DNA from: Escherichia coli
Lineage (GTDB): Bacteria > Pseudomonadota > Gammaproteobacteria > Enterobacterales > Enterobacteriaceae
NCBI RefSeq assembly: GCF_041248615.1
Contig: NZ_CP158426.1
Strand: one strand, 5' to 3'
DNA length: 64,000 bases
Shown: positions 2,738 to 46,229 of the stretch, in pieces
Layout: each line of letters begins with the position of its first letter
How positions within the stretch are numbered: the stretch's first letter is position 1
The notes under the pieces: model-generated
Seen by the model: only the letters and a program-made list of their open reading frames with translations
Told to the model about the DNA's origin: nothing
Databases searched by the model: none
Position numbers and translations under genes: made by a program

Positions 2738-3227
2738 TCAACTCACTGGGTTAGTTGAATTTACAACCATGCTCAGTATCTCGATAAGCGCAGGGAGATG
2801 ATGCAGTGGTGGGCGGACTGGCTTGATGAAAGTGTGCTGTAATCCTCATATCCAACCTAAGAGATATGCACAATTTTGTGAATAAGATATTGAGAATTAG
2901 CAAAAGTTTTATTTTGCGTATCATCAATTCAGAATACAAAGTCACATGCTAATGTTCTGCATTGGTATCTTTTGCTTATCCATGTCTACATTATCGCCAA
3001 AATAATAGGTTTTGCCTATCAATTATTTGAATTACTTCCATGAAATTATAACGCACTTGTAATTTTTGATTATTTTTACCTCTCAAGTGTTTTGTTTCTT
3101 CTATCTCTTTGTATTTTTAGCGAAAGTATGCCATATTGCATTCTAATATAACGTGGCGTTGTTTCTGTTTAATGATTTAAATAGTTCAACATAATATTTG
3201 CTAACAAATTATATCCAAGCAAATCAT

Positions 3228-4373
3228 ATGATATTATCATTACAATATATTAGAGGAATAGCATCATTACTTGTTGTTTTATTCCACTTCAGATTCTTGC
3301 TAAATGAGCACTACTCTCAGAAAGATTTGGGTGACCTATTATTTGGGAATGGGCTGTCTGGAGTTGATATATTCTTCATATTAAGTGGATTTATCATCGT
3401 ATACTCAACAAGAAAGAAGGAAGTTAATGATACTTTCTCATTCTCAATTAGAAGAATATTTAGAATATACCCATTACTAATCACATGCTGTTGCATGTAT
3501 TACATAATAAACACTCAATTTCTAACCTATGCTACAGTTGAAAACTTTAGAACCTTACTTATTTCCATCATTCCATTAAATATAAACTGGAATGAAGGCG
3601 CTCCATTCTTTGCCTATAATCTTTTGTACCCGGCCTGGACGATAACATATGAAATTGGTTTCTATGTTTTTTTCGGGGTATCAATGTCTATTTCGCATAA
3701 ATACAGAACAATTATCTGTTCTGTTTTTATAATCATGGTGGTCTCATTTACACAATACTATGTAAATGGAAATATATCATTTTCAGGTGATGTTAGTGCA
3801 GGGTTATTTACAGATAACTGGTTATTAGGATATACAAATGTTATTACATCTCCAATGATGTATGAATTCGTTATTGGGATGTTTCTTTCTGAAATATTTA
3901 CAAACATCAACGAAAGCAAAAGTATTAAAAGGATACTTTCAAAGTATTCGCTTCAAATACTATGGATTTCATGTGGTATATCCATAATATTATTCATTAT
4001 CCAGCGACCTTATGGGCATGGATTGAATGGATTTGGGACTATGGCGATGATACTTATTGCATCATCATTAGTATATGAATACTGCAATATAACACCCAAA
4101 ATAAAAATATTTAATTTCCTTGGTGAAATATCATATTCTTTATATCTAATTCACGCCGTGATACTTGCTTTGTTCTTCTATTATAAGGCAGACCTTGCTG
4201 AAATTGGCATAACTGGTGGATTTTCTGTGTTTTTTTCCTTGGTTATTATCTCAATAACTGCATCATATCCAATATATATTCTCATTGAAAAGCCAATGAT
4301 AAATATAGGTAAACGTTTAATTGACAAGAGAAATAAGAGCATTAACAAAAAAGAAACCGAAATAACAGCGTGA
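3228..4373 (+). CDS. integral membrane acyltransferase, family 3 (putative O-antigen/polysaccharide O-acetyltransferase)
   Basis: Very hydrophobic multi-TM protein; N-terminal R/H motif YIRGIASLLVVLFH typical of acyltransferase family 3; ATG at 3228 chosen over the track's TTG at 3198; AT-rich codon usage. Confidence 0.7.
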   Translation: MILSLQYIRGIASLLVVLFHFRFLLNEHYSQKDLGDLLFGNGLSGVDIFFILSGFIIVYSTRKKEVNDTFSFSIRRIFRIYPLLITCCCMYYIINTQFLTYATVENFRTLLISIIPLNINWNEGAPFFAYNLLYPAWTITYEIGFYVFFGVSMSISHKYRTIICSVFIIMVVSFTQYYVNGNISFSGDVSAGLFTDNWLLGYTNVITSPMMYEFVIGMFLSEIFTNINESKSIKRILSKYSLQILWISCGISIILFIIQRPYGHGLNGFGTMAMILIASSLVYEYCNITPKIKIFNFLGEISYSLYLIHAVILALFFYYKADLAEIGITGGFSVFFSLVIISITASYPIYILIEKPMINIGKRLIDKRNKSINKKETEITA

Positions 4374-4410
4374 TAATGACAAAGTTAGTGCCGGGATACC
4401 CCGGCACTAT

Positions 4411-5748
4411 TTAATCTATTTCGTAAGTGACAGTGATTATCACTTCTGCATTATTACCCAAAACATTTTGATATATATTCATATTACCTGATAATGTAGT
4501 TGCTCCAGTAAGAGTTATATAACTACTATTTGCATCAACCCTTGGAAGTAAAGCGGTAACTGCTGTTGTTAAATTATTATAGTAGCCTGTACTTCCAACA
4601 TATGCAGCTTTATTGCTTGATACATATGGTAACCCTCCAATTCTGAAACCATCTCCTGACCCAATTAAAGTTATACCAAGGTGACATGTTGCCGTTATGA
4701 TATTGCCACTCCTGACATAATTTCCTTTCTGCTGATAATATGTGGCATTACCACCTACAGTCGGAATCCAAACTCCAGTTTCTATATCACCACATGACCA
4801 GTCTTCTGCTGTTGTTAGTTTTCCAGTAACAATAAATTTACTTCCACCACCAGAATTATAAGGAACAAAAATTGGATTTATTCTTGCATAAGTGTTACCG
4901 GTCTGCTCATTAAGATCATTTCTATCAATAAGAACTTGACCATTTTCGAAGTTTGAAATCTGGCAGTCTGTTACACTCCAGTCTCTTAACTTCACATCAG
5001 CATCCATGACACCAATAAGCTTACCAGCATTACCAATTTTTTCTTTATGCATATTTACATACACATTTCTTACCGTAACAGACTGAGGGAACAGATAATT
5101 AGCAGGATTAGTTTTATCACTTAAAACAGATATTACCCAAGGTCTGTATTGAGTACTTACTTCACAATAAAATCCATCAATAAGCGTTCCAGATGCCGCT
5201 GGCCCAAGTAGTATTCCACCTGTAGAGTGATGCGCACTACCTCCAATTACTCTCCCCTTAACGCAGTTAATATAGGCAAAACATCCTAAATCTTGATTGT
5301 CATAGGCTGACATAGCACAGTCTCTAACTGTTACTCGAGAATTTCCTCCGTCATAAGCTGAGCCATCAGTTTTCTTACCAACTATTGATATAAAGTTACC
5401 AATAGCAACTCGACTATAAAAAGTTTTTTTATAACACCCCTCAATTAAAATATCCCAGTTTTCAAACTGAGCATATATATCATAAATGCTGGCATTCCCA
5501 TAATCTATGAAATCACAATATCTTATTTTCGGCGTATAAACGGCACTTTTTATCTTTATACCACCTAATGCTCTCTCCCCACCTGTGAATCTAATGCCAG
5601 TAACGGTGTAATCGCCTTGATAGAAATTATCTGCGGTAGGATTATTTTCGTCAGAATCATCACCCAATATAATAGCAAATTCACTCCCTGAATAATTAAT
5701 TGTCGCCCCCTTATTTGAATATATAGTTACAGGTCTTATAAACTCCAA
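4411..5748 (-). CDS. beta-helix-like protein of unknown function (possible tailspike/depolymerase-like domain); lacks an ATG start, possibly frameshifted or truncated
   Basis: 445-codon ORF whose first codon is TTG; Gly/Asn/Thr/Val-rich repetitive sequence; in-frame upstream TGA; upstream out-of-frame ATG (5831) separated by an A7/T7 tract. Confidence 0.45.
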   Translation of the reverse strand: MEFIRPVTIYSNKGATINYSGSEFAIILGDDSDENNPTADNFYQGDYTVTGIRFTGGERALGGIKIKSAVYTPKIRYCDFIDYGNASIYDIYAQFENWDILIEGCYKKTFYSRVAIGNFISIVGKKTDGSAYDGGNSRVTVRDCAMSAYDNQDLGCFAYINCVKGRVIGGSAHHSTGGILLGPAASGTLIDGFYCEVSTQYRPWVISVLSDKTNPANYLFPQSVTVRNVYVNMHKEKIGNAGKLIGVMDADVKLRDWSVTDCQISNFENGQVLIDRNDLNEQTGNTYARINPIFVPYNSGGGSKFIVTGKLTTAEDWSCGDIETGVWIPTVGGNATYYQQKGNYVRSGNIITATCHLGITLIGSGDGFRIGGLPYVSSNKAAYVGSTGYYNNLTTAVTALLPRVDANSSYITLTGATTLSGNMNIYQNVLGNNAEVIITVTYEID

Positions 5749-6140
5749 AGAATTACTTATCAGATACTCTCCATAAGGAAAAAAATCTCAACTGGTGGTG
5801 AGTACTTTGGTCTGGAGTTTACGTAATTCATAATATTGATTACACCAACATCATAGATAATCGCCACCTTCTGGCGAGGAGCTCCTGATGCAATTAATCG
5901 CCAGGCCTACGCCCATTATTCATGGGTAAATTTTGGACGGAGCCCCCAATTCCATCCTCAATTCTCCCTCGCACTGAGGAGTAGTAAGTGCAATTATTTA
6001 AAAAATCGCAAACAGAATATTATCATTTATTCTTGCATTCTGTTAATTAAAACCACACATAAAAACGTTGATACTTGATAAGTAAGTAGAGTATTATTAA
6101 TGGTTTTAATAACGAACCTTTTAATCATGAGAAGCCTCAA

Positions 6141-7166
6141 ATGACTAGTACCAATAACATAACAAGAAAAAAAATGGATGGAGTAACAATCTTAAGATTT
6201 ATAGCTGCTTTTTATGTGTTTATTTTTCACATTAACATGAGAGTCCCCGTTAATTTTGGAGAGCTTATTAATAAAACCATTAGCAATGGCGTCATTGGCA
6301 TGAGTATTTTCTTCATGCTTTCTGGTTTTGTTTTGACTTATAATTACTATGGTTCCTTGTCAAACAATTACTTCAGGAAGCGAATAGCAAGAATATTTCC
6401 AGCCTATTTATTTTGTGGGCTTTTAACCCTCCCATTTTTGTTATCCAGCGATGCAAGCTTTTTAAAAATGATTGCAAGCATATTCTTGTTTGTTACTGGA
6501 ATGCAATCATGGATTTATCAGACCTTCGATTTTTGGAATTTTAGCGGTACCTGGTCAATATCAGTGGAATTGTTTTTTTATGCCCTGTTTCCATTTTTGA
6601 TAAAAAACATCAACAAAAACAATGTAATTTATGTTTTACTTTTTTCATATTTATCTTCAGCATTATTAATCCCATTATCTGATATAATTCAGGGACCTGT
6701 AGTTTGGTCCGTATATTACGCAACTCCAATATACAGGTTACCAGAATTTGTGGTGGGCGTCTGTATCGCAATACTTTTTTTAAATGGCTATCGTGTTAAC
6801 CATTATACATGGCTATTAAGCATTTTATTATTTCTGTATGCTACCACCCAGCAAAACAATAACTCCATGGGGGTGAACTATCTCACAATTCCTGCGATAT
6901 CAATTATGTTATTGCACCTGGCAAAAATCAACATCAAAAACAACATTGCAAACAGAGCGATCATTTACTTTGGAGATATAAGTTATTCGTTTTATTTGAT
7001 GCAATTACCTATATTATATTACCTGGATCATAATAAAAACTCATTTATTCTTAACTATGGTCTTTTTAGCTGGCTTGTACTTTTTGTTATTAATACTGCA
7101 ATGGCATCATTATCTTATCACTTTCTGGAGAAGAACGATAAAATCAGAAAAATAATTACATCCTGA
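6141..7166 (+). CDS. integral membrane acyltransferase, family 3 (second copy, divergent sequence)
   Basis: 341-aa hydrophobic protein with motif ILRFIAAFYVFIFH; AT-rich. Confidence 0.7.
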   Translation: MTSTNNITRKKMDGVTILRFIAAFYVFIFHINMRVPVNFGELINKTISNGVIGMSIFFMLSGFVLTYNYYGSLSNNYFRKRIARIFPAYLFCGLLTLPFLLSSDASFLKMIASIFLFVTGMQSWIYQTFDFWNFSGTWSISVELFFYALFPFLIKNINKNNVIYVLLFSYLSSALLIPLSDIIQGPVVWSVYYATPIYRLPEFVVGVCIAILFLNGYRVNHYTWLLSILLFLYATTQQNNNSMGVNYLTIPAISIMLLHLAKINIKNNIANRAIIYFGDISYSFYLMQLPILYYLDHNKNSFILNYGLFSWLVLFVINTAMASLSYHFLEKNDKIRKIITS

Positions 7167-29014: not shown

Positions 29015-29508
29015 TGCTGCCCCCACAAACAGACTTCACGCTCAATCTCACGGCGAGTCATCAGCCCTTTCCATTGCTTACCGCCAGCGTATGTCCAGCG
29101 ACGTAGCTGGTCACATGCGCCTTTGATATCGCCCTGGTTTATTTTGCGAAGAAGCGTCGATGTTCTGAAATTGCCAGCACCCACGTTGTAGACGAACGAG
29201 TAAAGAGCGCCGCGCGTTGTTTCCGGTATATCGACTTTGATGTACGGGTTAATTTGTCTGGCGACCGTGGCAAGGTCTTTATTCAGGAGGGCTTTGCATT
29301 CTGCTTCGGTATACGTTTTACCGGGAATGATGTCTTTTCCTGTATGCCCGTGACATACAGTCCATACGCCAACGATATCTTTGTATGGTATGTAGCTGAC
29401 ACCTTCCAGACCATCGTTACCACCTGGACCAGTGATTAACACTGATGCTATAGCAATAGCCCCGCCACCAATAGCAGCTGCAACAGCTTTTCGTAATGAT
29501 GGAGGCAT
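29011..29508 (-). CDS. R: SAR endolysin (lysozyme), phage 21 R-like
   Basis: 165 aa; N-terminal Gly/Ala-rich signal-anchor-release segment [20 protein letters not shown] then lysozyme domain. Confidence 0.85.
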
Positions 29509-29723
29509 TATTCACCTCTCGCAGCCTTTCTTCTGTCTTCTCTGATTTTGAAGTACAGATTTGTCAGATAAGTCAAAAAGCCCAGAACTAGACTTCCCAG
29601 CACACCAATTGCAGCCCACTGTGACGGACTGACCTGATCCAACCACTGTAAAAACCAGTATCCCGCACTACCAGCGGATGTTCCGTAGGCAATGCCAGTA
29701 GAGATTTTGTCCATTGATTTCAT
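29508..29723 (-). CDS. S: pinholin/antiholin S with dual start, phage 21 S-like
   Basis: 71 aa [29 protein letters not shown]... with two TM segments and Met1/Met4 dual-start motif. Confidence 0.85.
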
Positions 29724-29841
29724 AGCAACGCCTCCGCAAGTAACGGATTGCGTAGTTCTTATATTGGGAAGGGGAAAAAAGAAGGCCGCGGCATAACTAT
29801 CACTGATGAGTTCAGGATAGCCAGTGGCTACGGCTCAGTTA

Positions 29842-29917
29842 TGGTGCTGGTTAACGGACTTGAACCGCTACCCATTCGCTTACAAGGCGACTGCTCTACC
29901 ATTGGAGCTAAACCAGC
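29842..29917 (-). tRNA. tRNA-like gene, anticodon UGU (Thr) by manual folding
   Basis: 76-nt cloverleaf: acceptor GCTGGTT/AACCAGC, D arm GCTC-CAATGGTA-GAGC, anticodon loop CTTGTAA (U33, A37), T arm AGCGG-TTCAAGT-CCGTT, 3' ACCA; one anticodon-stem mismatch. Confidence 0.55.
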
Positions 29918-29922
29918 ATGTT

Positions 29923-29997
29923 TGGCGGGACAGCGTGGACTCGAACCACGATAAGAAGGTTAACAGCCTTCCGTAATGACCTTTATACGACTGACCC
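29923..29997 (-). tRNA. tRNA-like gene, anticodon GUU (Asn), possibly degenerate
   Basis: Anticodon arm GAAGG-CTGTTAA-CCTTC and T arm CGTGG-TTCGAGT-CCACG are perfect; acceptor stem has one mismatch and the D stem is short. Confidence 0.45.
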
Positions 29998-30001
29998 AAA
30001 T

Positions 30002-30043
30002 AAAAAAAGCCACCGTTGCAACTTAAGAGTCACTAACGGCAGC
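30002..30043 (-). terminator. tR'-like terminator downstream of Q
   Basis: Reverse-strand hairpin followed by U7 just upstream of the tRNA genes. Confidence 0.45.
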
Positions 30044-30088
30044 TTATGCCAATAGTGTTGCTCATTTGCTCAATGATGTCAACACGTT

Positions 30089-30577
30089 CTATGCTACATG
30101 TTTAATTTTCTCTACACGTTTCCGATTTTTAAACGCACTATCCAGAACCGGGTAAATCATAAACAACGAGGCATTAAGGATTTCGTCAACTTCCCGTCGA
30201 CAGGTTGCGAGCGATGGTTTTTGAATGCGCCCGCCGCCACGGCATAACATCTTGCGAGGTCTTGCGACGCGATGATAGTAAGATGCAATGGCGTGCTTGG
30301 AAGAGCCATGAGCGTAGTAGCTGAGGAGGATTCCAAAGGCTTTCTTGTCAATGTACATGACGGAATCGACGACCTGAGAAATCAACATTCCATCATCATC
30401 ATTACACATTGGCCTTGTCATAACTCTTCCCGGCTCTACGCTCTCCATGAACTTCGCTATTACGCTGCTCATGCGCTTTTCCAGACGACCTGAATAAACC
30501 CATGCGCCCCACAGTTCAAGCCAGCCATTCAGCCACTCATGCTGTTCTTTGGTGAGGTTTAGTTCTCTTATGCCCAC
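30089..30577 (-). CDS. Q: late gene antiterminator Q (non-lambda type)
   Basis: 162 aa, GTG start at 30577; Cys-containing C-terminal region; occupies the Q position between nin genes and the lysis cassette. Confidence 0.65.
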
Positions 30578-36633: not shown

Positions 36634-36933
36634 ATGGCAGTAGTCATTACATATCTGGCTGACGATAACGCCAGAAATCGCCGCAGAGCACGCAGACAGG
36701 CTCAACGTGAACAGGCAATGCAAGAACAGCGACTGGCGCGAAAGATTGCGCTAAAGCTCTCTGGTTGCGTCAGAGCAGATAAAGCAGCATCACTCGGAAG
36801 CCTTCGCTGCAAGAAGGCAGAAGAGGTCGAGAGTAAACGGAATCGTATTTACTACCGCAAGCCACGCAGTGAAATGGGTGTGACTTGTGTTGGTCGCCAG
36901 AAAATGAAATTAGGCAGTAAGCCACTTATTTGA
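36634..36933 (+). CDS. N: antiterminator N (phage 21-like)
   Basis: 99 aa with N-terminal arginine-rich motif NARNRRRARRQAQRE and C-terminus ...YYRKPRSEMGVTCVGRQKMKLGSKPLI resembling N proteins. Confidence 0.75.
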   Translation: MAVVITYLADDNARNRRRARRQAQREQAMQEQRLARKIALKLSGCVRADKAASLGSLRCKKAEEVESKRNRIYYRKPRSEMGVTCVGRQKMKLGSKPLI

Positions 36934-36944
36934 GAGGAATTAAT

Positions 36945-37568
36945 ATGTCATCAATCCGCTTAACTACGAGAATGAAAGAGGAAATCGCTCGTAACGCTTT
37001 AATTAAGTCTGGGGTTTTCACTGAACTTGAAGAAGTAACAAAGTTAAAGAACCAGCTTGCACTTGACGCCAGAGTTATTGCGTTTGGCGGTAAAAAGAAA
37101 ACTGAGGAAGTGGATCAGTTATCATCCAAGTTGGTAGCTATAAGTGAAGAACTTGAAAAGATGGGATGTTCATTTTACTCATACGATGTTCGTTCTACTT
37201 CAATTTATCTGACTGTATCTGGCAGAAGGGTTGGATGGCTTTCATATGGGAAAGACGGCAACGGCGAAGATATATTGCTCCCTGCTCCGAACAAAGATAA
37301 ATGCATGTTTAGCGCAGAACACGAAATAACAAAAAGGTTTGATGAAATCTGCGCATTGCAACAAAAACTTGAAGCCAAGAAAAAGGATATCGAATCAAAT
37401 GTATGGGCTGCTTTGAACTCAGTCACAACAGTTAAGCGACTTATTGAAGTTTGGCCTGAAAGCAAAGAGTTGCTACCAAAAGAAGCAGATAAAGCAAGTA
37501 CAGCACTTCCTGCTTTACGGGTAGAAGATTTGAATAAGATGATTGGACTTCCTTCCGAGGCCGCATAG
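36945..37568 (+). CDS. hypothetical protein (207 aa) immediately downstream of N
   Basis: ATG at 36945 with RBS GAGAGGA; no motif I can assign; followed by a terminator. Confidence 0.5.
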   Translation: MSSIRLTTRMKEEIARNALIKSGVFTELEEVTKLKNQLALDARVIAFGGKKKTEEVDQLSSKLVAISEELEKMGCSFYSYDVRSTSIYLTVSGRRVGWLSYGKDGNGEDILLPAPNKDKCMFSAEHEITKRFDEICALQQKLEAKKKDIESNVWAALNSVTTVKRLIEVWPESKELLPKEADKASTALPALRVEDLNKMIGLPSEAA

Positions 37569-39495: not shown

Positions 39496-40176
39496 ATGGG
39501 AACTGCGACATTAATACTCGGTGAATCTGGCACCGGAAAATCAACCAGCATGAGAAATATCAATCCAGAGGAAGCAATACTTATAAAACCAATAGGCAAG
39601 CCGCTTCCATTTAAATCAAAAGACTGGCTGGCATGGGATGCCAGAGCAAAAAAAGGAACCGTAGTTACCACTGACAAATGGGACGTAATAGTTGCCGTAA
39701 TTAAGCGTGCTCACGAATACGGGAAAAGAATCGTTATTGTTGATGACTTCCAGTATGTGATGAGCAATGAGTTTATGCGCCGCTCAGAAGAAAAATCGTT
39801 TGATAAATTCACTGAGATAGGCCGCCACGCATGGGAGGTGATTAAGGCTGCACAGGATGCACCTGATGACCTGAGAGTCTATTTTCTTGCGCACACCGAA
39901 GAAACCCCTATGGGGCGTGTGAAAATGAAGACTATCGGCAAAATGCTGGACGAGAAAATCACTGTCGAAGGCATGTTTACTATAGTTCTTCGCACCCTTA
40001 CCCGCGATGACCAGTTCTTTTTCACCACGAAAAACAACGGTGCAGACACTGTTAAATCCCCAATGGGAATGTTTGATTCTAATGAGATTGATAACGATCT
40101 CTCTTTCGTCGATGCCACTGTTTGTGATTACTACGGCATCAATAATGTTCATCAAATTAAGGAAAACGCCGCATGA
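39496..40176 (+). CDS. Sak4-like RecA-fold ATPase (phage single-strand annealing/recombination protein)
   Basis: 226 aa; Walker A LILGESGTGKST near the N-terminus and Walker B-like IVIVDD; size and position match Sak4-type recombinases. Confidence 0.65.
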   Translation: MGTATLILGESGTGKSTSMRNINPEEAILIKPIGKPLPFKSKDWLAWDARAKKGTVVTTDKWDVIVAVIKRAHEYGKRIVIVDDFQYVMSNEFMRRSEEKSFDKFTEIGRHAWEVIKAAQDAPDDLRVYFLAHTEETPMGRVKMKTIGKMLDEKITVEGMFTIVLRTLTRDDQFFFTTKNNGADTVKSPMGMFDSNEIDNDLSFVDATVCDYYGINNVHQIKENAA

Positions 40177-40760
40177 GCAACGTGATTTTTACTTATAACG
40201 AAGAAGCAGCACTGACCGCAGGGCAAGGTGGTTTTATTAACGAAACTGGTGCTCATATCATTACCATTACTGAAGCAGAACTAAAGCAATCAGAAAAAGG
40301 AGCCAAATTTATTGAGTTTTCTGGCGAATCTGACGACGGACGTAAAATCCAATATCTTAGCGTCTGTGTTCAGAAAAATGACGGAACGGAAAACAAATTT
40401 GGCGCAAATGTCGTTCACGCCATGATGGGGTGTGCCGGGATTGGACAATTAACGCAACATATGGTTTCCGCCAGTAAATTTGTTGCTCCTGAGTTTCATG
40501 GAAAGAAAATCGGGTTAGTGCTCCAGAAAGTATTAACCACAAACAAAAAGACTGGCGCAGACAGCTACCAGATGGAAATACGCATCCCGTTTATTGCACA
40601 AACAGGTCAAACCCTTAAAGAAAAGGCGGAAGGCAAGCAACCAGAAACTATCGCCAACATGGTTGCCAGCCTCAAAGATAAAGACAATCGCTCTAAAAAC
40701 GTAAGCCAGAATCATGCAGATGATTATGGTTACAGCCAGAACGATTACCCTCCATTCTAG
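40173..40760 (+). CDS. putative single-stranded DNA-binding partner protein with SSB-like acidic C-terminal tail
   Basis: 195 aa ending ...HADDYGYSQNDYPPF, resembling the SSB C-terminal tip (DDDIPF); coupled to the Sak4-like gene. Confidence 0.5.
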   Translation: MSNVIFTYNEEAALTAGQGGFINETGAHIITITEAELKQSEKGAKFIEFSGESDDGRKIQYLSVCVQKNDGTENKFGANVVHAMMGCAGIGQLTQHMVSASKFVAPEFHGKKIGLVLQKVLTTNKKTGADSYQMEIRIPFIAQTGQTLKEKAEGKQPETIANMVASLKDKDNRSKNVSQNHADDYGYSQNDYPPF

Positions 40761-40785
40761 ATTATTGCAAAATAAGGATTCCATT

Positions 40786-41082
40786 ATGCCAGCGCCTCTG
40801 TATGGTGCGGATGACCCGCGCAATTGCTCCGGTAGCTCCAAGGCGGAGGTGCTGGAAAATATCAAAAACAATTTCGACGCGTTTCTTGCTCTGACACCAG
40901 AAACAAAAGCAGAACGGATGTACCGACGCGATATACAACTCGCGCTAAAACAGGAGAAGGACCGAACAAACGAAACAGCAATGAGACCGTTGCGAAAAGC
41001 GACAATAGACAAATTCCCTGAATATATCGACCCGCGCCTGCGTAATTACCGCTCACGCTATGGCGCTATCAGTAATGACTGA
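40786..41082 (+). CDS. hypothetical protein (98 aa)
   Basis: ATG at 40786 with RBS AAGGA; track ORF starts earlier at a non-ATG codon. Confidence 0.4.
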
Positions 41083-43544: not shown

Positions 43545-43763
43545 ATGTACTTGACACTTCAGGAGTGGAATGCACGCCAGCGACGCCCAAGAAGCCTTGA
43601 AACAGTTCGTCGATGGGTGCGCGAATGCAGGATATTCCCTCCTCCGGTTAAGGATGGAAGAGAATATCTGTTCCACGAATCAGCGGTAAAGGTTGACTTA
43701 AATCGACCAGTAACAGGTAGCCTTTTGAAGAGGATCAGAAATGGGAAGAAGGCGAAGTCATGA
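43545..43763 (+). CDS. xis: excisionase
   Basis: 72 aa MYLTLQEWNARQRRPRSLETVRRWVRECRIFPPPVKDGREYLFHESAVKVDLNRPVTGSLLKRIRNGKKAKS, lambda Xis; overlaps int start. Confidence 0.92.
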   Translation: MYLTLQEWNARQRRPRSLETVRRWVRECRIFPPPVKDGREYLFHESAVKVDLNRPVTGSLLKRIRNGKKAKS

Positions 43764-44811
43764 GCGCCGGGATTTACCCCCTAACCTTTATATAAGAAAC
43801 AATGGATATTACTGCTACAGGGACCCAAGGACGGGTAAAGAGTTTGGATTAGGCAGAGACAGGCGAATCGCAATCACTGAAGCCATACAGGCCAACATTG
43901 AGTTATTTTCAGGACACAAACACAAGCCTCTGACAGCGAGAATCAACAGTGATAATTCCGTTACGCTACATTCATGGCTTGATCGCTACGAAAAAATCCT
44001 GGCCAGCAGAGGAATCAAGCAGAAGACACTCATAAATTACATGAGCAAAATTAAAGCAATAAGGAGGGGGCTGCCTGATGCTCCACTTGAAGACATCACC
44101 ACAAAAGAAATTGCGGCAATGCTCAATGGATACATAGACGAGGGCAAGGCGGCGTCAGCCAAGTTAATCAGATCAACACTGAGCGATGCATTCCGAGAGG
44201 CAATAGCTGAAGGCCATATAACAACAAACCCTGTCGCTGCCACTCGCGCAGCAAAATCAGAGGTAAGGAGATCAAGACTTACGGCTGACGAATACCTGAA
44301 AATTTATCAAGCAGCAGAATCATCACCATGTTGGCTCAGACTTGCAATGGAACTGGCTGTTGTTACCGGGCAACGAGTTGGTGATTTATGCGAAATGAAG
44401 TGGTCTGATATCGTAGATGGATATCTTTATGTCGAGCAAAGCAAAACAGGCGTAAAAATTGCCATCCCAACAACATTGCATGTTGATGCTCTCGGGATAT
44501 CAATGAAGGAAACACTTGATAAATGCAAAGAGATTCTTGGCGGAGAAACCATAATTGCATCTACTCGTCGTGAACCGCTTTCATCCGGCACAGTATCAAG
44601 GTATTTTATGCGCGCACGAAAAGCATCAGGTCTTTCCTTCGAAGGGGATCCGCCTACCTTTCACGAGTTGCGCAGTTTGTCTGCAAGACTCTATGAGAAG
44701 CAGATAAGCGATAAGTTTGCTCAACATCTTCTCGGGCATAAGTCGGACACCATGGCATCACAGTATCGTGATGACAGAGGCAGGGAGTGGGACAAAATTG
44801 AAATCAAATAA
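43741..44811 (+). CDS. int: tyrosine integrase (lambda Int)
   Basis: 356 aa MGRRRSHERRDLPPNLYIRNNGYYCYRDPRTGKEFGLGRDRRIAITEA... with catalytic R...HxxR...Y region; adjacent to attL. Confidence 0.95.
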   Translation: MGRRRSHERRDLPPNLYIRNNGYYCYRDPRTGKEFGLGRDRRIAITEAIQANIELFSGHKHKPLTARINSDNSVTLHSWLDRYEKILASRGIKQKTLINYMSKIKAIRRGLPDAPLEDITTKEIAAMLNGYIDEGKAASAKLIRSTLSDAFREAIAEGHITTNPVAATRAAKSEVRRSRLTADEYLKIYQAAESSPCWLRLAMELAVVTGQRVGDLCEMKWSDIVDGYLYVEQSKTGVKIAIPTTLHVDALGISMKETLDKCKEILGGETIIASTRREPLSSGTVSRYFMRARKASGLSFEGDPPTFHELRSLSARLYEKQISDKFAQHLLGHKSDTMASQYRDDRGREWDKIEIK

Positions 44812-44945: not shown

Positions 44946-46229
44946 GTGAACACATTTTCAGTTTCCCGTCTGGCGCTGGCATTGGCTTTTGGCGTGACGC
45001 TGACCGCCTGTAGCTCAACACCGCCCGATCAACGTCCTTCTGATCAAACCGCGCCTGGTACCTCTTCTCGCCCGATTCTGTCGGCAAAAGAAGCGCAGAA
45101 TTTCGATGCTCAACACTATTTTGCATCCCTGACACCAGGTGCGGCAGCGTGGAATCCTTCCCCGATTACCCTGCCTGCACAACCTGACTTTGTTGTCGGC
45201 CCGGCGGGTACTCAAGGTGTAACGCATACCACGATTCAGGCGGCGGTAGATGCGGCAATTATCAAGCGTACCAACAAGCGCCAGTATATTGCCGTGATGC
45301 CTGGTGAGTATCAGGGAACGGTGTATGTCCCTGCCGCTCCGGGTGGAATTACTCTGTACGGTACAGGTGAAAAACCGATTGATGTGAAGATTGGGCTTTC
45401 CCTTGATGGGGGCATGAGCCCCGCCGACTGGCGTCACGACGTCAACCCGCGCGGCAAATATATGCCAGGTAAACCAGCGTGGTATATGTACGATAGCTGC
45501 CAGAGCAAACGCAGCGACAGTATCGGCGTTCTCTGCTCTGCGGTCTTCTGGTCACAAAACAATGGCCTGCAACTGCAAAACCTGACCATCGAAAACACGC
45601 TGGGCGATAGCGTAGATGCGGGTAACCATCCGGCGGTGGCACTGCGTACTGATGGCGACAAAGTGCAGATCAATAACGTCAACATTCTCGGTCGTCAGAA
45701 TACCTTCTTTGTCACCAACAGTGGTGTGCAAAACCGTCTGGAAACCAACCGTCAGCCGCGTACTCTGGTGACCAACAGTTACATTGAAGGGGATGTGGAT
45801 ATCGTTTCTGGTCGCGGCGCAGTGGTGTTCGATAACACCGAATTCCGCGTGGTGAACTCCCGTACCCAGCAAGAAGCGTATGTGTTTGCACCGGCTACGC
45901 TGTCCAACATTTACTACGGTTTCCTCGCCGTAAACAGCCGTTTCAATGCTTCCGGTGATGGCGTGGCGCAACTGGGCCGCTCGCTGGATGTTGATGCCAA
46001 TACCAACGGTCAGGTGGTGATCCGTGATAGTGCCATCAACGAAGGTTTTAACACAGCCAAACCGTGGGCTGATGCGGTGATCTCTAATCGTCCGTTTGCG
46101 GGTAACACCGGCAGCGTTGATGATAACGACGAAGTACAGCGCAATCTGAATGACACTAACTACAACCGCATGTGGGAATACAATAACCGCGGCGTGGGTA
46201 GCAAAGTGGTTGCAGAGGCGAAGAAGTAA
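44946..46229 (+). CDS. ybhC: outer membrane lipoprotein YbhC (pectinesterase-like fold)
   Basis: GTG start; signal peptide with lipobox LTACS; 427 aa. Confidence 0.9.
   Translation: MNTFSVSRLALALAFGVTLTACSSTPPDQRPSDQTAPGTSSRPILSAKEAQNFDAQHYFASLTPGAAAWNPSPITLPAQPDFVVGPAGTQGVTHTTIQAAVDAAIIKRTNKRQYIAVMPGEYQGTVYVPAAPGGITLYGTGEKPIDVKIGLSLDGGMSPADWRHDVNPRGKYMPGKPAWYMYDSCQSKRSDSIGVLCSAVFWSQNNGLQLQNLTIENTLGDSVDAGNHPAVALRTDGDKVQINNVNILGRQNTFFVTNSGVQNRLETNRQPRTLVTNSYIEGDVDIVSGRGAVVFDNTEFRVVNSRTQQEAYVFAPATLSNIYYGFLAVNSRFNASGDGVAQLGRSLDVDANTNGQVVIRDSAINEGFNTAKPWADAVISNRPFAGNTGSVDDNDEVQRNLNDTNYNRMWEYNNRGVGSKVVAEAKK

Follow-up and report, generated by a model that had tools for sequence, protein, structure and literature searches.

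In phage 21, two adjacent tRNA genes, one for tRNA-Asn(GUU) and one for tRNA-Thr(UGU), are annotated between the Q and holin genes (OL657228, CPT_21_64 and CPT_21_65; PMID 1704887). Annotations of this cassette also exist for Sf6 (AF547987), SfI (JX509734) and BTP1, and PGAP labels both genes; the cassette as such is thus already known. RNA-seq of BTP1 placed the two tRNA genes with the highly expressed loci of the prophage (PMC7067206). The significance of tRNA-Asn was described as unclear in 2013.

Resistance of the threonine tRNA to the nuclease Old was demonstrated experimentally in 2025-2026, on the phage 21 and HK446 sequence that is identical to the one described here. The phage 21 tRNA-Thr(UGU) protects against P2-OLD; it was uncut without ATP and poorly cut at 150 mM K+. 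A shorter anticodon stem and the changes C28U/G42A were noted in connection with its resistance, and its rescue depends on decoding, ACA decoding being restored (PMC12445682). With the HK446 Thr(UGU), OLD-sensitive phages plate again, and HK446 was described in that work as having a single tRNA, the Thr gene (bioRxiv 10.64898/2026.07.10.737580). Of the two adjacent tRNAs, it was tRNA-Thr that both studies examined (PMC12445682; bioRxiv 10.64898/2026.07.10.737580). A second nuclease, AriB, cleaves the Lys(UUU), Thr(UGU) and Asn(GUU) tRNAs of E. coli at 40|41, with determinants U39, A41 and U16, and the Lys, Thr and Asn tRNAs of T5 jointly neutralise PARIS (PMC12409363).

Organization of the late leader

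The window analyzed here is a 64,000-nucleotide stretch of E. coli DNA that contains a prophage. All features of its late leader lie on the reverse strand and are given in the direction of transcription. A Q21-type late antiterminator gene of 162 codons (30089..30577) was recognized by ORF calling and homology. The Q region is 98% identical to phage 21 and about 97.6% identical to a prophage of E. coli SCU-301; the homologues in these two records bear the annotations 'antiterminator' and 'antiterminator Q family protein'. The late promoter pR' with its Q-binding element (QBE; 30047..30082) was mapped by alignment from the phage 21 annotation: the -35 sequence TTGACA lies at 30082-30077, the QBE, ATTGAGCAAATGAGCA, at 30074-30059, the -10 sequence at 30059-30054 and the start at about 30047. 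The pR'/QBE sequence is that of phage 21 except for one base at 30050. The intrinsic terminator tR' (29998..30045), a hairpin followed by U7 (-21.9 kcal/mol, z = -2.6), ends 3 nt ahead of tRNA-Asn. Its sequence is exactly that of the terminator which the phage 21 (PMID 1704887) and Sf6 annotations show, in agreement with an earlier note on this DNA, made from the sequence alone, which had described a tR'-like hairpin with U7 here.

ARAGORN and Rfam agree on two tRNA genes. The first to be transcribed is tRNA-Asn(GUU) (29923..29997; 75 nt, gtt call), and the second, beyond a 5-nt spacer AACAU (29918..29922; AACAT or AATAT in homologues), is tRNA-Thr(UGU) (29842..29917; 76 nt, tgt call). These positions, anticodons and strand are exactly those proposed in the earlier note, and the encoded CCA, U33 and A37 that it ascribed to both cloverleaves are present in the sequence. 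Against the Rfam RF00005 gathering score of 29, tRNA-Thr scored 61.5 bits and tRNA-Asn 55.3 bits, the latter 26 bits over the threshold; E-values over the whole window were 7e-11 and 3e-9, respectively. Both are genuine tRNA genes and neither is degenerate. ARAGORN found no further tRNA in the 64 kb window, and a permissive Rfam scan of 29650-30150 for a third RNA in the leader returned only these two. A simple scan from tR' to the holin gene showed no internal sigma-70 promoter; as it misses pR' as well, this negative carries little weight.

Downstream of tRNA-Thr, folding and conservation delimit an imperfect hairpin at 29834-29785, followed by CUUCUUUUUU at 29784-29775 (feature 29775..29834). 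It folds at -23.4 kcal/mol (z = -3.96), is common to lambda, HK446 and Sf6, and has a diversity of 0.05, as against 0.35 just past its end. The hairpin, which marks the 3' end of the conserved cassette, is a candidate for a second terminator or a processing site. Its interpretation as a structured RNA was rejected: the changes in lambda and in an IMG/VR variant (at least 8 loci) are non-compensatory, and the U-run is missing from P22-like phages. Next comes an S21-type class II holin (pinholin) gene of 71 codons (29508..29723), with which the protein-coding part of the late operon begins, at the place where the earlier note had put the S gene. The order pR'-QBE-tR'-tRNAs-holin is the same as in annotated phage 21, and the annotations of phage 21 and Sf6 agree that lambdoid phages carry tRNA genes in this slot. 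In Stx phages, the ileZ-argN-argO tRNA genes are also located downstream of Q and pR', in the same late-leader slot ahead of the first late or moron genes. Their anticodons differ, being directed to rare Ile and Arg codons, and the usual explanation for them is codon supply.

Distribution of the cassette

The sequence comprising tR' and both tRNAs is 100% identical to that of phage 21, Sf6 and HK446, and the module of BTP1 is 99.1% identical to that of the window. In comparison with phage 21, which has the same terminator and the same tRNAs, ordered alike and likewise placed between Q and the holin gene, only the surrounding prophage differs: in the window its late genes are of the myovirus type, its recombination module is Sak4/SSB/Abc2, it carries O-antigen acyltransferase morons, and it is located at lambda attB. 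Phage phi458, the best BLAST match, was rejected as an annotation template, its late genes differing from those of the window.

At least 80% of the tRNA pair is held by 346 of the 5,426 complete E. coli genomes. Across 121 copies, diversity within the cassette is about 0.01-0.02, as against 0.31-0.35 in the flanks, and the tR' terminators that precede the cassette are of at least four kinds. Exactly where HK446 has the cassette, lambda has a 165-nt segment instead; this segment was considered as a decayed tRNA cassette and rejected, as it gave no tRNA-like match. ARAGORN finds both tRNAs in HK446, the record of which carries no tRNA annotation. The 2026 preprint counts the Thr gene alone, and for these two reasons a role of tRNA-Asn would have been overlooked.

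A probable role in counter-defence

The reading that we consider probable is that the window holds the conserved Asn(GUU)-Thr(UGU) cassette of lambdoid phages of the phage 21/Sf6/HK446 type, and that both genes are functional and supply nuclease-resistant replacements for host tRNAs. As judged from the layout, RNA polymerase starting at pR' would normally halt at tR', and polymerase modified by Q21 would pass it, the two tRNAs then being the first sequences transcribed. RNase P and trimming at the 3' end would release them from the late transcript as bulk phage protein synthesis begins, and they would stand in for host tRNAs cleaved in the anticodon stem by Toprim-type anti-phage tRNases, the nucleases concerned being Old from prophage P2 and AriB from PARIS.

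For tRNA-Thr, the window sequence shows no difference from tRNA-Thr21 or from the HK446 Thr(UGU), including G27·A43 and U28/A42; identity to the tRNA-Thr21 of PMC12445682 was judged against the phage 21 genome sequence. Its resistance has been attributed to the stem shortened by G27·A43 together with the altered CNG motif (C28U/G42A). In the window tRNA-Thr the anticodon arm, GUCGC/GCGAA, contains the G27·A43 mismatch and has UCG/CGA where host thrU has CUG/CAG, which fits the published description (PMC12445682). The irregularities of this tRNA are G27·A43, C14 and G50·U64; its conserved loop and tertiary set is complete save for C14 in place of A14. Compensatory changes are limited to two acceptor pairs, in a Klebsiella homologue, and are thinner than those for tRNA-Asn. 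ThrRS recognizes G1-C72, C2-G71, G35 and U36, and AsnRS recognizes G34-U35-U36 and G73. All ThrRS elements are present in tRNA-Thr, which has A73, and all AsnRS elements in tRNA-Asn.

In the literature searched we found no experiment on resistance of this phage tRNA-Asn to AriB or Old, or on its role in escape. A counter-defence role for this tRNA is suggested by differences from the host at every reported Old and AriB determinant. Relative to host asnT it has A16 for U16, C39 for U39 and U41 for C41, and the paired CNG motif, CGG/CCG in asnT, is lost, being AAG/CUU. The window tRNA-Thr likewise departs from its host counterpart at positions 16, 39 and 41. Host tRNA-Asn(GUU) is a secondary target of both Old and AriB. 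We tentatively propose, with somewhat less than even confidence, a counter-defence cassette of two tRNAs in which tRNA-Asn, as the other half, is refractory to the Toprim tRNases of the Old/PARIS family, and that both tRNAs are needed in hosts carrying such nucleases; the features responsible would be A16, G31-C39, U41, the loss of the CNG pair and perhaps U4·U69. These nucleases are carried on P2/P4-type elements, and the two tRNAs together would let lambdoid phages finish late protein synthesis.

Three further points bear on counter-defence by the cassette. A tandem with the same anticodons in the same order occurs in P1/P7 (AF503408). The Thr genes are 82% identical to that of the window, and the recurrence of the tandem in P7 with an unrelated Asn gene (58% identical) was counted for counter-defence. 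In contrast to the shortened stem of the window tRNA-Thr, the anticodon stem of the P7 Thr is complete, with 5 bp and the motif CUG/CAG, and the P1/P7 tandem is under the C1-controlled operator Op(ban), thus regulated by repressor, whereas the window cassette is regulated by Q antitermination. T5 has the Thr(UGU) and Asn(GUU) anticodons in common with the window, and the resistance mutations of its tRNA-Lys are at 16, 39 and 41, the same positions that differ from the host in the window tRNAs (PMC11464382, PMC12409363). The T5 genes, however, are non-homologous (61-64% identical) and belong to an array of more than 20 tRNAs including tRNA-Lys, whereas the window holds two tRNAs of a temperate phage and no tRNA-Lys; the Asn and Thr tRNAs of T5 have mismatched, weak anticodon stems, whereas the stem of the window tRNA-Asn, GAAGG/CCUUC, is fully paired. 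Finally, the prophage carries an Abc2 anti-RecBCD gene, and interference with RecBCD is the reported trigger class for Old.

Other observations weigh against counter-defence. The main target of AriB is tRNA-Lys(UUU), so that the cassette, which lacks it, could not alone defeat the characterized PARIS. In one study the preferred targets of Old were Thr, Gly, fMet, Val and Pro, Asn being absent, and the viral tRNAs failed to rescue lambda itself (bioRxiv 10.64898/2026.07.10.737580). A Klebsiella homologue of tRNA-Asn has a paired CNG motif, CAG/CUG, and loss of this motif is therefore not family-wide. Because the tRNAs are only 62-70% identical to their host counterparts overall, the differences at 16, 39 and 41 are weak as statistics. 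The idea that the cassette gives immunity to a tRNA nuclease borne by the prophage itself was also considered: no such nuclease emerged when the accessory ORFs were scanned with PADLOC and Pfam, which gave acyltransferases, Nmad5, Ead/Ea22 and DUF551 instead.

Codon usage

As an alternative, codon supplementation could be the main function, the tRNAs decoding codons used more by the phage than by the host, as proposed in the SfI genome paper (PMC3636060); we regard this as possible but doubtful. Codon counts were made from ORFs called in the window itself. In the host flanks, ACA makes up 13.6% of Thr codons (7.9 per 1000); its share is 20.5% in late, 33% in early and 36% in accessory genes (2.7-7.2 kb). 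SfI shows the same trend (17.3% vs 7.1%; PMC3636060), and in E. coli the abundance of tRNA-Thr(UGU) is low (PMC12445682). Asn codons, on the other hand, show no enrichment, at 48.3 per 1000 in the late genes and 43.8 in the host flanks, as the SfI authors likewise saw (PMC3636060). By the comparison of late-gene and host codon usage suggested in the earlier note, codon supply may contribute for tRNA-Thr and was rejected as the reason for tRNA-Asn. For tRNA-Thr, the ACA enrichment is an explanation simpler than counter-defence, though a partial one. Moreover, ACA is favoured most strongly in early and accessory genes, whose expression precedes Q or does without it, whereas the tRNAs are behind tR'. 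Extra host tRNA-ThrU gave no protection against Old where the phage version did (PMC12445682; bioRxiv 10.64898/2026.07.10.737580), which indicates that sequence differences matter and not dosage only. Codon supply and counter-defence are compatible rather than mutually exclusive, and providing ACA-rich phage genes with this rare decoder is probably a secondary benefit of tRNA-Thr.

An unlikely alternative in RNA processing

It is also conceivable, but in our view unlikely, that the tRNA structures serve mainly as punctuation for RNA processing, with decoding incidental: the pR' leader would be split off through cleavage by RNases P and E, which would set the 5' end of the late mRNA. The cassette fits exactly between the terminator U-tract and a hairpin that is present in lambda as well, and the BTP1 late operon was described as starting directly after the tRNAs (PMC7067206). 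Yet lambda has in this place only the unrelated segment noted above, for which no tRNA-like match was found, and punctuation would need neither an invariant anticodon, discriminator and identity elements nor the dependence of tRNA-Thr rescue on decoding (PMC12445682).

Structural constraint on tRNA-Asn

The earlier note had viewed tRNA-Asn as possibly degenerate, a pseudo-tRNA or a regulatory RNA, which would leave tRNA-Thr as the only functional gene. The irregularities on which this was founded are real: there is an acceptor-stem mismatch, U4·U69, and the D stem is reduced to 3 bp by U13·U22. In addition, the variable loop has 4 nt. The minimum free energy fold is marginal, only slightly better than shuffled sequence (z = -1.7), and codon usage offers no rationale for the gene. 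However, tRNA-Thr, shown by experiment to be functional, gives much the same z (-1.7) and has comparable irregularities. Besides its Rfam score, tRNA-Asn carries every conserved loop and tertiary nucleotide: U8, A14, G18-G19, U33, a purine at 37, the T-loop UUCRA and G53-C61.

In nine diverged homologues the cloverleaf is kept, 91.5% of pair cells being paired, and both-sided, compensatory changes occur at 11 of the 21 pairs, a number matched by none of 500 shuffles. Discriminator G73 and anticodon GUU are invariant across these homologues. Mismatches are confined to U4·U69 and U13·U22, which are conserved in all lineages while the neighbouring pairs covary. Because the mismatches are conserved family traits and the helices covary, a pseudo-tRNA is unsupported. 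Whether or not the flanks differ, phage 21, Sf6, HK446 and phage L have the gene at 100% identity, and it is likewise identical in 91 of 120 IMG/VR copies among the matches listed, frequencies that are samples and not censuses; its diversity is 0.024, as against 0.31-0.35 in the flanks. Where lineages lose a copy, it is tRNA-Thr that decays and tRNA-Asn that stays: the Thr homologue of phage L has a 4-nt anticodon loop and is missed by ARAGORN, and the Thr gene is truncated at at least two IMG/VR loci. On this comparative evidence tRNA-Asn is under structural selection, and its reading as a decayed or regulatory RNA is largely refuted and highly improbable.

Least probable of all is compensation for a host tRNA gene broken by integration: tRNA genes are the integration sites of many temperate phages, SfI with the same cassette integrates into thrW (PMC3636060) and compensation was suggested for HK446 (bioRxiv 10.64898/2026.07.10.737580), but the prophage here is at lambda attB, between ybhB (1969-2445) and ybhC (44946-46226), with its integrase at 43741-44808, which refutes the idea at this locus; neither junction has a tRNA gene, thrW encodes tRNA-Thr(CGU) rather than UGU, and a cassette behind a terminator that requires Q would be poorly designed for constitutive complementation.

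Implications

For genome annotation the locus is ordinary, and its value is in the tie to the recent work on Old and PARIS. The cassette cautions against calling phage tRNAs 'degenerate' on the ground of stem mismatches: the irregularities are conserved here, and in tRNA-Thr they are what has been published as determining resistance. A prophage with a tRNA-Thr directed against Old is present in about 6% of complete E. coli genomes, and the copy in the window is identical to the tRNA that blunts this classical nuclease of P2-lambda interference. The residual interest is in tRNA-Asn, which is predicted to resist Old and AriB through its substitutions in the anticodon arm and D-loop.

Identification of the tRNA genes

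ARAGORN found exactly two tRNAs in the whole 64 kb window, tRNA-Thr(UGU) at 29842-29917 and tRNA-Asn(GUU) at 29923-29997, both on the minus strand; these are the same coordinates and anticodons that an earlier note had read from the sequence. Both were also called, with unchanged anticodons, by the Rfam tRNA model, at 61.5 bits (E-value 7e-11 for the 64 kb window) for tRNA-Thr and 55.3 bits (3e-9) for tRNA-Asn, against a gathering score of 29. A permissive Rfam rescan of 29650-30150 revealed no RNAs beyond these two. In order of transcription, all on the minus strand, the region comprises the Q gene (30577-30089), pR', a hairpin followed by U7 (tR', 30045-29998), tRNA-Asn, a 5-nt spacer, tRNA-Thr, a 118-nt leader and a 71-codon S21-type holin gene (29723-29508), so the tRNAs do lie between terminator and holin gene as had been proposed.

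Both tRNAs have an encoded CCA, U33 and A37. The acceptor-stem mismatch and short D stem previously noticed in tRNA-Asn are real: position 4 faces 69 as U·U, and U13·U22 reduces the D stem to three pairs. Irregularities in tRNA-Thr are G27·A43, C14 and G50·U64. A14 is near-universal in tRNAs, where it is the partner of U8; this tRNA-Thr has C14, its identical sequence has proved functional experimentally, and at least five IMG/VR copies have U14. The original observation is confirmed and its interpretation partly supported, in that there are two tRNA genes as located but neither is degenerate.

Related phages and prophage setting

The 451-nt region is 99.6% identical to phi458 and 98.2% to phage 21. 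Identity is about 90% with Sf6, SfI, BTP1 and numerous P22-like Salmonella phages, and the majority of these records annotate tRNA-Asn followed by tRNA-Thr here. The phage 21 record has, in the same order, the pR' -35 and -10 elements, Q-binding element, transcription start, sigma-dependent pause element, terminator (an annotation resting on PMID 1704887), tRNA-Asn, tRNA-Thr and the S21 antiholin/holin; the Sf6 record is annotated likewise, as "similar to phage 21". When the window, phage 21 and Sf6 were aligned, tR' and both tRNAs were 100% identical, with differences in the Sf6 promoter region and downstream leader. Tandem Asn(GUU)/Thr(UGU) genes downstream of Q have been described in SfI, Sf6, ST64T, PS3 and phage 21 (SfI genome paper, PMC3636060). 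At a coverage of at least 80%, the tRNA pair alone was found in 346 of 5,426 complete E. coli genomes, with both genes labelled by PGAP, and on 15 phage-plasmid-like records. Thus, the cassette is an already known and routinely annotated feature.

The prophage extends from about 2.5 to 44.9 kb at the lambda attachment site, flanked by bioA and ybhB (510-2445) and by ybhC (44946-46226), with the integrase gene at 43741-44808. Its late genes, on the minus strand, match a myovirus-type prophage of E. coli SCU-301 at 98% identity. Products of the early-left region include an N-like antiterminator and Kil, besides a recombination module (39496-41082, plus strand) made up of a Sak4-like annealase, SSB and the Abc2 anti-RecBCD protein rather than lambda Exo/Bet/Gam. 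Directly downstream of the N-like antiterminator gene is a gene for a 212-aa protein with nucleotide-modification-associated domain 5 (Nmad5; 36930-37568, plus strand). Two Acyl_transf_3 genes (3198-4373 and 6141-7166, plus strand), probably O-antigen-modifying morons, lie at the prophage end adjoining ybhB, with an unannotated 445-codon ORF between them (4411-5748, minus strand).

Cassette borders and predicted expression

The conserved block runs from the terminator U-tract to a 50-nt imperfect hairpin directly after tRNA-Thr (29834-29785; -23.4 kcal/mol, z = -3.96); in the window CUUCUUUUUU is directly 3' of this hairpin, the two occupying 29775-29834 on the minus strand. The block is preceded by at least four different tR' sequences, each ending in TTTTTTATTT. 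Lambda (the imm434 locus, L131 537-700) and HK446 (L143 5098-5253) have Q, pR', 6S RNA and tR' in common, but lambda has an unrelated 165-nt segment, with no tRNA-like match, exactly where HK446 has a 161-nt Asn-Thr cassette. Since the junctions are the terminator U-tract and the conserved hairpin, the difference reads as a clean cassette swap. Lambda, HK446 and Sf6 also have the hairpin itself between their tR' and S. Its role may be that of a second terminator, in which case read-through of tR' would feed the tRNAs without lysis-gene expression, or, just as well, that of a processing site; substitutions within the hairpin in lambda are non-compensatory, and the P22-like phages have no U-run after it. 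Other tRNAs are also found in the late-leader slot: Asn-Phe-Thr-Arg(UCU) in Klebsiella phage ST101-KPC2phi6.1 (L004 801-1120), Asn-Met(CAU) in Pantoea, Asn-Arg(UCU) in one IMG/VR contig and, in another locus, tRNA-Gly(UCC) ahead of Thr.

The layout, taken with the annotated phage 21 elements and established lambdoid biology, implies that transcription of the tRNAs would be Q-dependent. Transcripts from pR' would stop at tR' unless the polymerase carries the Q21 modification, and the tRNAs are the first sequences past it, with 3 nt between the end of the U-tract and G1 of tRNA-Asn. A crude scan detected no separate sigma-70-like promoter for them. The BTP1 module is 99.1% identical to that of the window; RNA-seq of lysogens placed "the two tRNA genes" among highly expressed prophage loci, and the lytic operon was described as starting directly after both (PMC7067206).

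Conservation of tRNA-Asn

The suggestion that tRNA-Asn is degenerate, perhaps a pseudo-tRNA or regulatory RNA, is contradicted by its identity across phages, its covarying stems and its conserved mismatches. Phage 21, Sf6, HK446 and phage L all have this gene without a single difference, as do 91 of the 120 IMG/VR matches listed; across the matches listed per-site diversity is 0.024 for tRNA-Asn, 0.011 for the unconstrained part of tRNA-Thr, 0.12 for the spacer and 0.31-0.35 for the flanks. Diverged tRNA-Asn genes turned up in Shimwellia, Morganella, Mixta, Pantoea, E. albertii and phage-like contigs when one genome per species was scanned. Among nine distinct tRNA-Asn sequences the cloverleaf is kept in 91.5% of pair cells, and 11 of 21 pairs have changes on both sides, a result equalled in 0 of 500 shuffles and approached by no slid register. 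Six of the nine have U·U at position 4:69, two have U·G and one has U-A, whereas the neighbours 3:70, 5:68, 6:67 and 7:66 all covary. U13·U22 is found in all nine, the D arm having been fixed by the search pattern so that its invariance among homologues is uninformative. One IMG/VR variant with a wholly different D arm, anticodon stem and T arm has the acceptor GGGUCAG/CUGUCCC, with U4·U69 kept. By comparison of these homologues, U4·U69 and U13·U22 are best read as conserved characters, not defects. G73 and GUU, the AsnRS identity set, are invariant.

Decay of a single member of the pair affects the Thr gene. Phage L (cII-101; L003 684-755) has a gene annotated as "tRNA-Leu (TAA)" that is a tRNA-Thr homologue, its anticodon loop cut to 4 nt by a 3-nt deletion. 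Not being called by ARAGORN, it is a true pseudo-tRNA, beside an intact and identical tRNA-Asn; an annotated terminator follows it. Thr is truncated in two loci among the IMG/VR matches listed. Both genes are present in 131 of 139 Asn-pattern loci among the listed matches of the two pooled IMG/VR scans, the rest keeping Asn, a co-occurrence that is overstated because some of the pooled loci had originally been picked up by the Thr pattern. E. albertii NBRC 107761 (L133, 5553-5630 and 5632-5706) has an identical tRNA-Asn, then a hybrid and tRNA-Gly(UCC). The hybrid, not called by ARAGORN, has the 5' half of the phage tRNA-Thr, a 3' half resembling host thrU and only three anticodon-stem pairs, which suggests that a phage and a host-type Thr gene have recombined.

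tRNA-Thr and the Old nuclease

Host tRNA-Thr(UGU) loses its anticodon stem-loop to Old, the tRNA nuclease of prophage P2, which kills in this way. Thr(UGU) tRNAs of phages give rescue, and that of phage 21 withstands cleavage in vitro, owing to a shorter anticodon stem and the changes C28U/G42A in a paired CNG motif (Govande et al., PMC12445682). The window tRNA-Thr has the same sequence as the phage 21 tRNA of that study. Its anticodon arm is GUCGC/GCGAA (G27·A43, U28, A42), compared with ACUGA/UCAGU in host thrU, and it would act as a nuclease-resistant replacement for the cleaved host tRNA. With the HK446 Thr(UGU) tRNA, Old-sensitive phages plate again at near wild-type levels, although viral tRNAs did not rescue lambda itself (bioRxiv 10.64898/2026.07.10.737580). 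That preprint describes "a single" Thr(UGU) tRNA in HK446, whereas ARAGORN calls both tRNA-Asn and tRNA-Thr, identical to those of the window, after a lambda-type Q, 6S RNA and tR'; neither is annotated in the record (NC_019714.1).

Codon supply is likely a secondary benefit, for tRNA-Thr only. Of the Thr codons, ACA accounts for 20.5% in late genes, 33% in early genes and 36% in accessory genes, compared with 13.6% in the host flanks, a clear enrichment; Asn codons are not enriched, in agreement with the SfI paper (PMC3636060). ACA usage is highest in the acyltransferase region (3198-7166; 36%). The strongest bias is in genes expressed before or without Q, and supplying more host tRNA-ThrU fails to give the protection from Old that the phage tRNA gives (PMC12445682; bioRxiv 10.64898/2026.07.10.737580). 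A purely structural role in RNA processing would leave the invariant identity elements unexplained and is unnecessary in lambda, with its unrelated segment in the same slot. That the cassette makes up for a disrupted host tRNA is excluded here, as the prophage sits at lambda attB and ARAGORN finds no further tRNA in the window.

A possible counter-defence role of tRNA-Asn

Like its neighbour, tRNA-Asn may be a nuclease-resistant replacement tRNA, as we infer from its differences from host asnT. AriB, the tRNA nuclease of PARIS, cuts the Lys(UUU) and Thr(UGU) tRNAs of E. coli, and less strongly its Asn(GUU) tRNA, between positions 40 and 41; cleavage is abolished by U39 to A and reduced by A41 to C or U16 to C, U16 being reported to matter for binding, and T5 Lys, Thr and Asn tRNAs together neutralise PARIS (Belukhina et al., PMC12409363). 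tRNA-Asn(GUU) is also a slower Old substrate (Govande et al., PMC12445682). Host asnT has U16, A31-U39, C41 and a paired CGG/CCG, compared with A16, G31-C39, U41 and AAG/CUU in the phage tRNA-Asn; the phage tRNA-Thr likewise has A16, G39 and G41, with U16 in host thrU. In P7, of the P1 family (L007 1425-1578), a C1-controlled operator governs a tandem of Asn(GUU) and Thr(UGU) genes. The Thr gene there is homologous to that of the window (82% identical) but the Asn gene is not (58%); the pair has therefore been put together from different genes, which suggests that selection has favoured the two specificities together rather than one inherited block.

Against a counter-defence role, the cassette lacks tRNA-Lys(UUU), the main AriB target, and in the 2026 preprint Asn is missing from the preferred Old targets and lambda was not rescued. 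The Klebsiella tRNA-Asn homologue has a paired CNG motif, and with identity to host tRNAs of only 62-70%, three chosen differing positions are weak statistics. As for tRNA-Thr, interference with RecBCD is the trigger class reported for P2 Old, and the Abc2 anti-RecBCD protein of the recombination module would make an anti-Old tRNA matter to this phage in particular.
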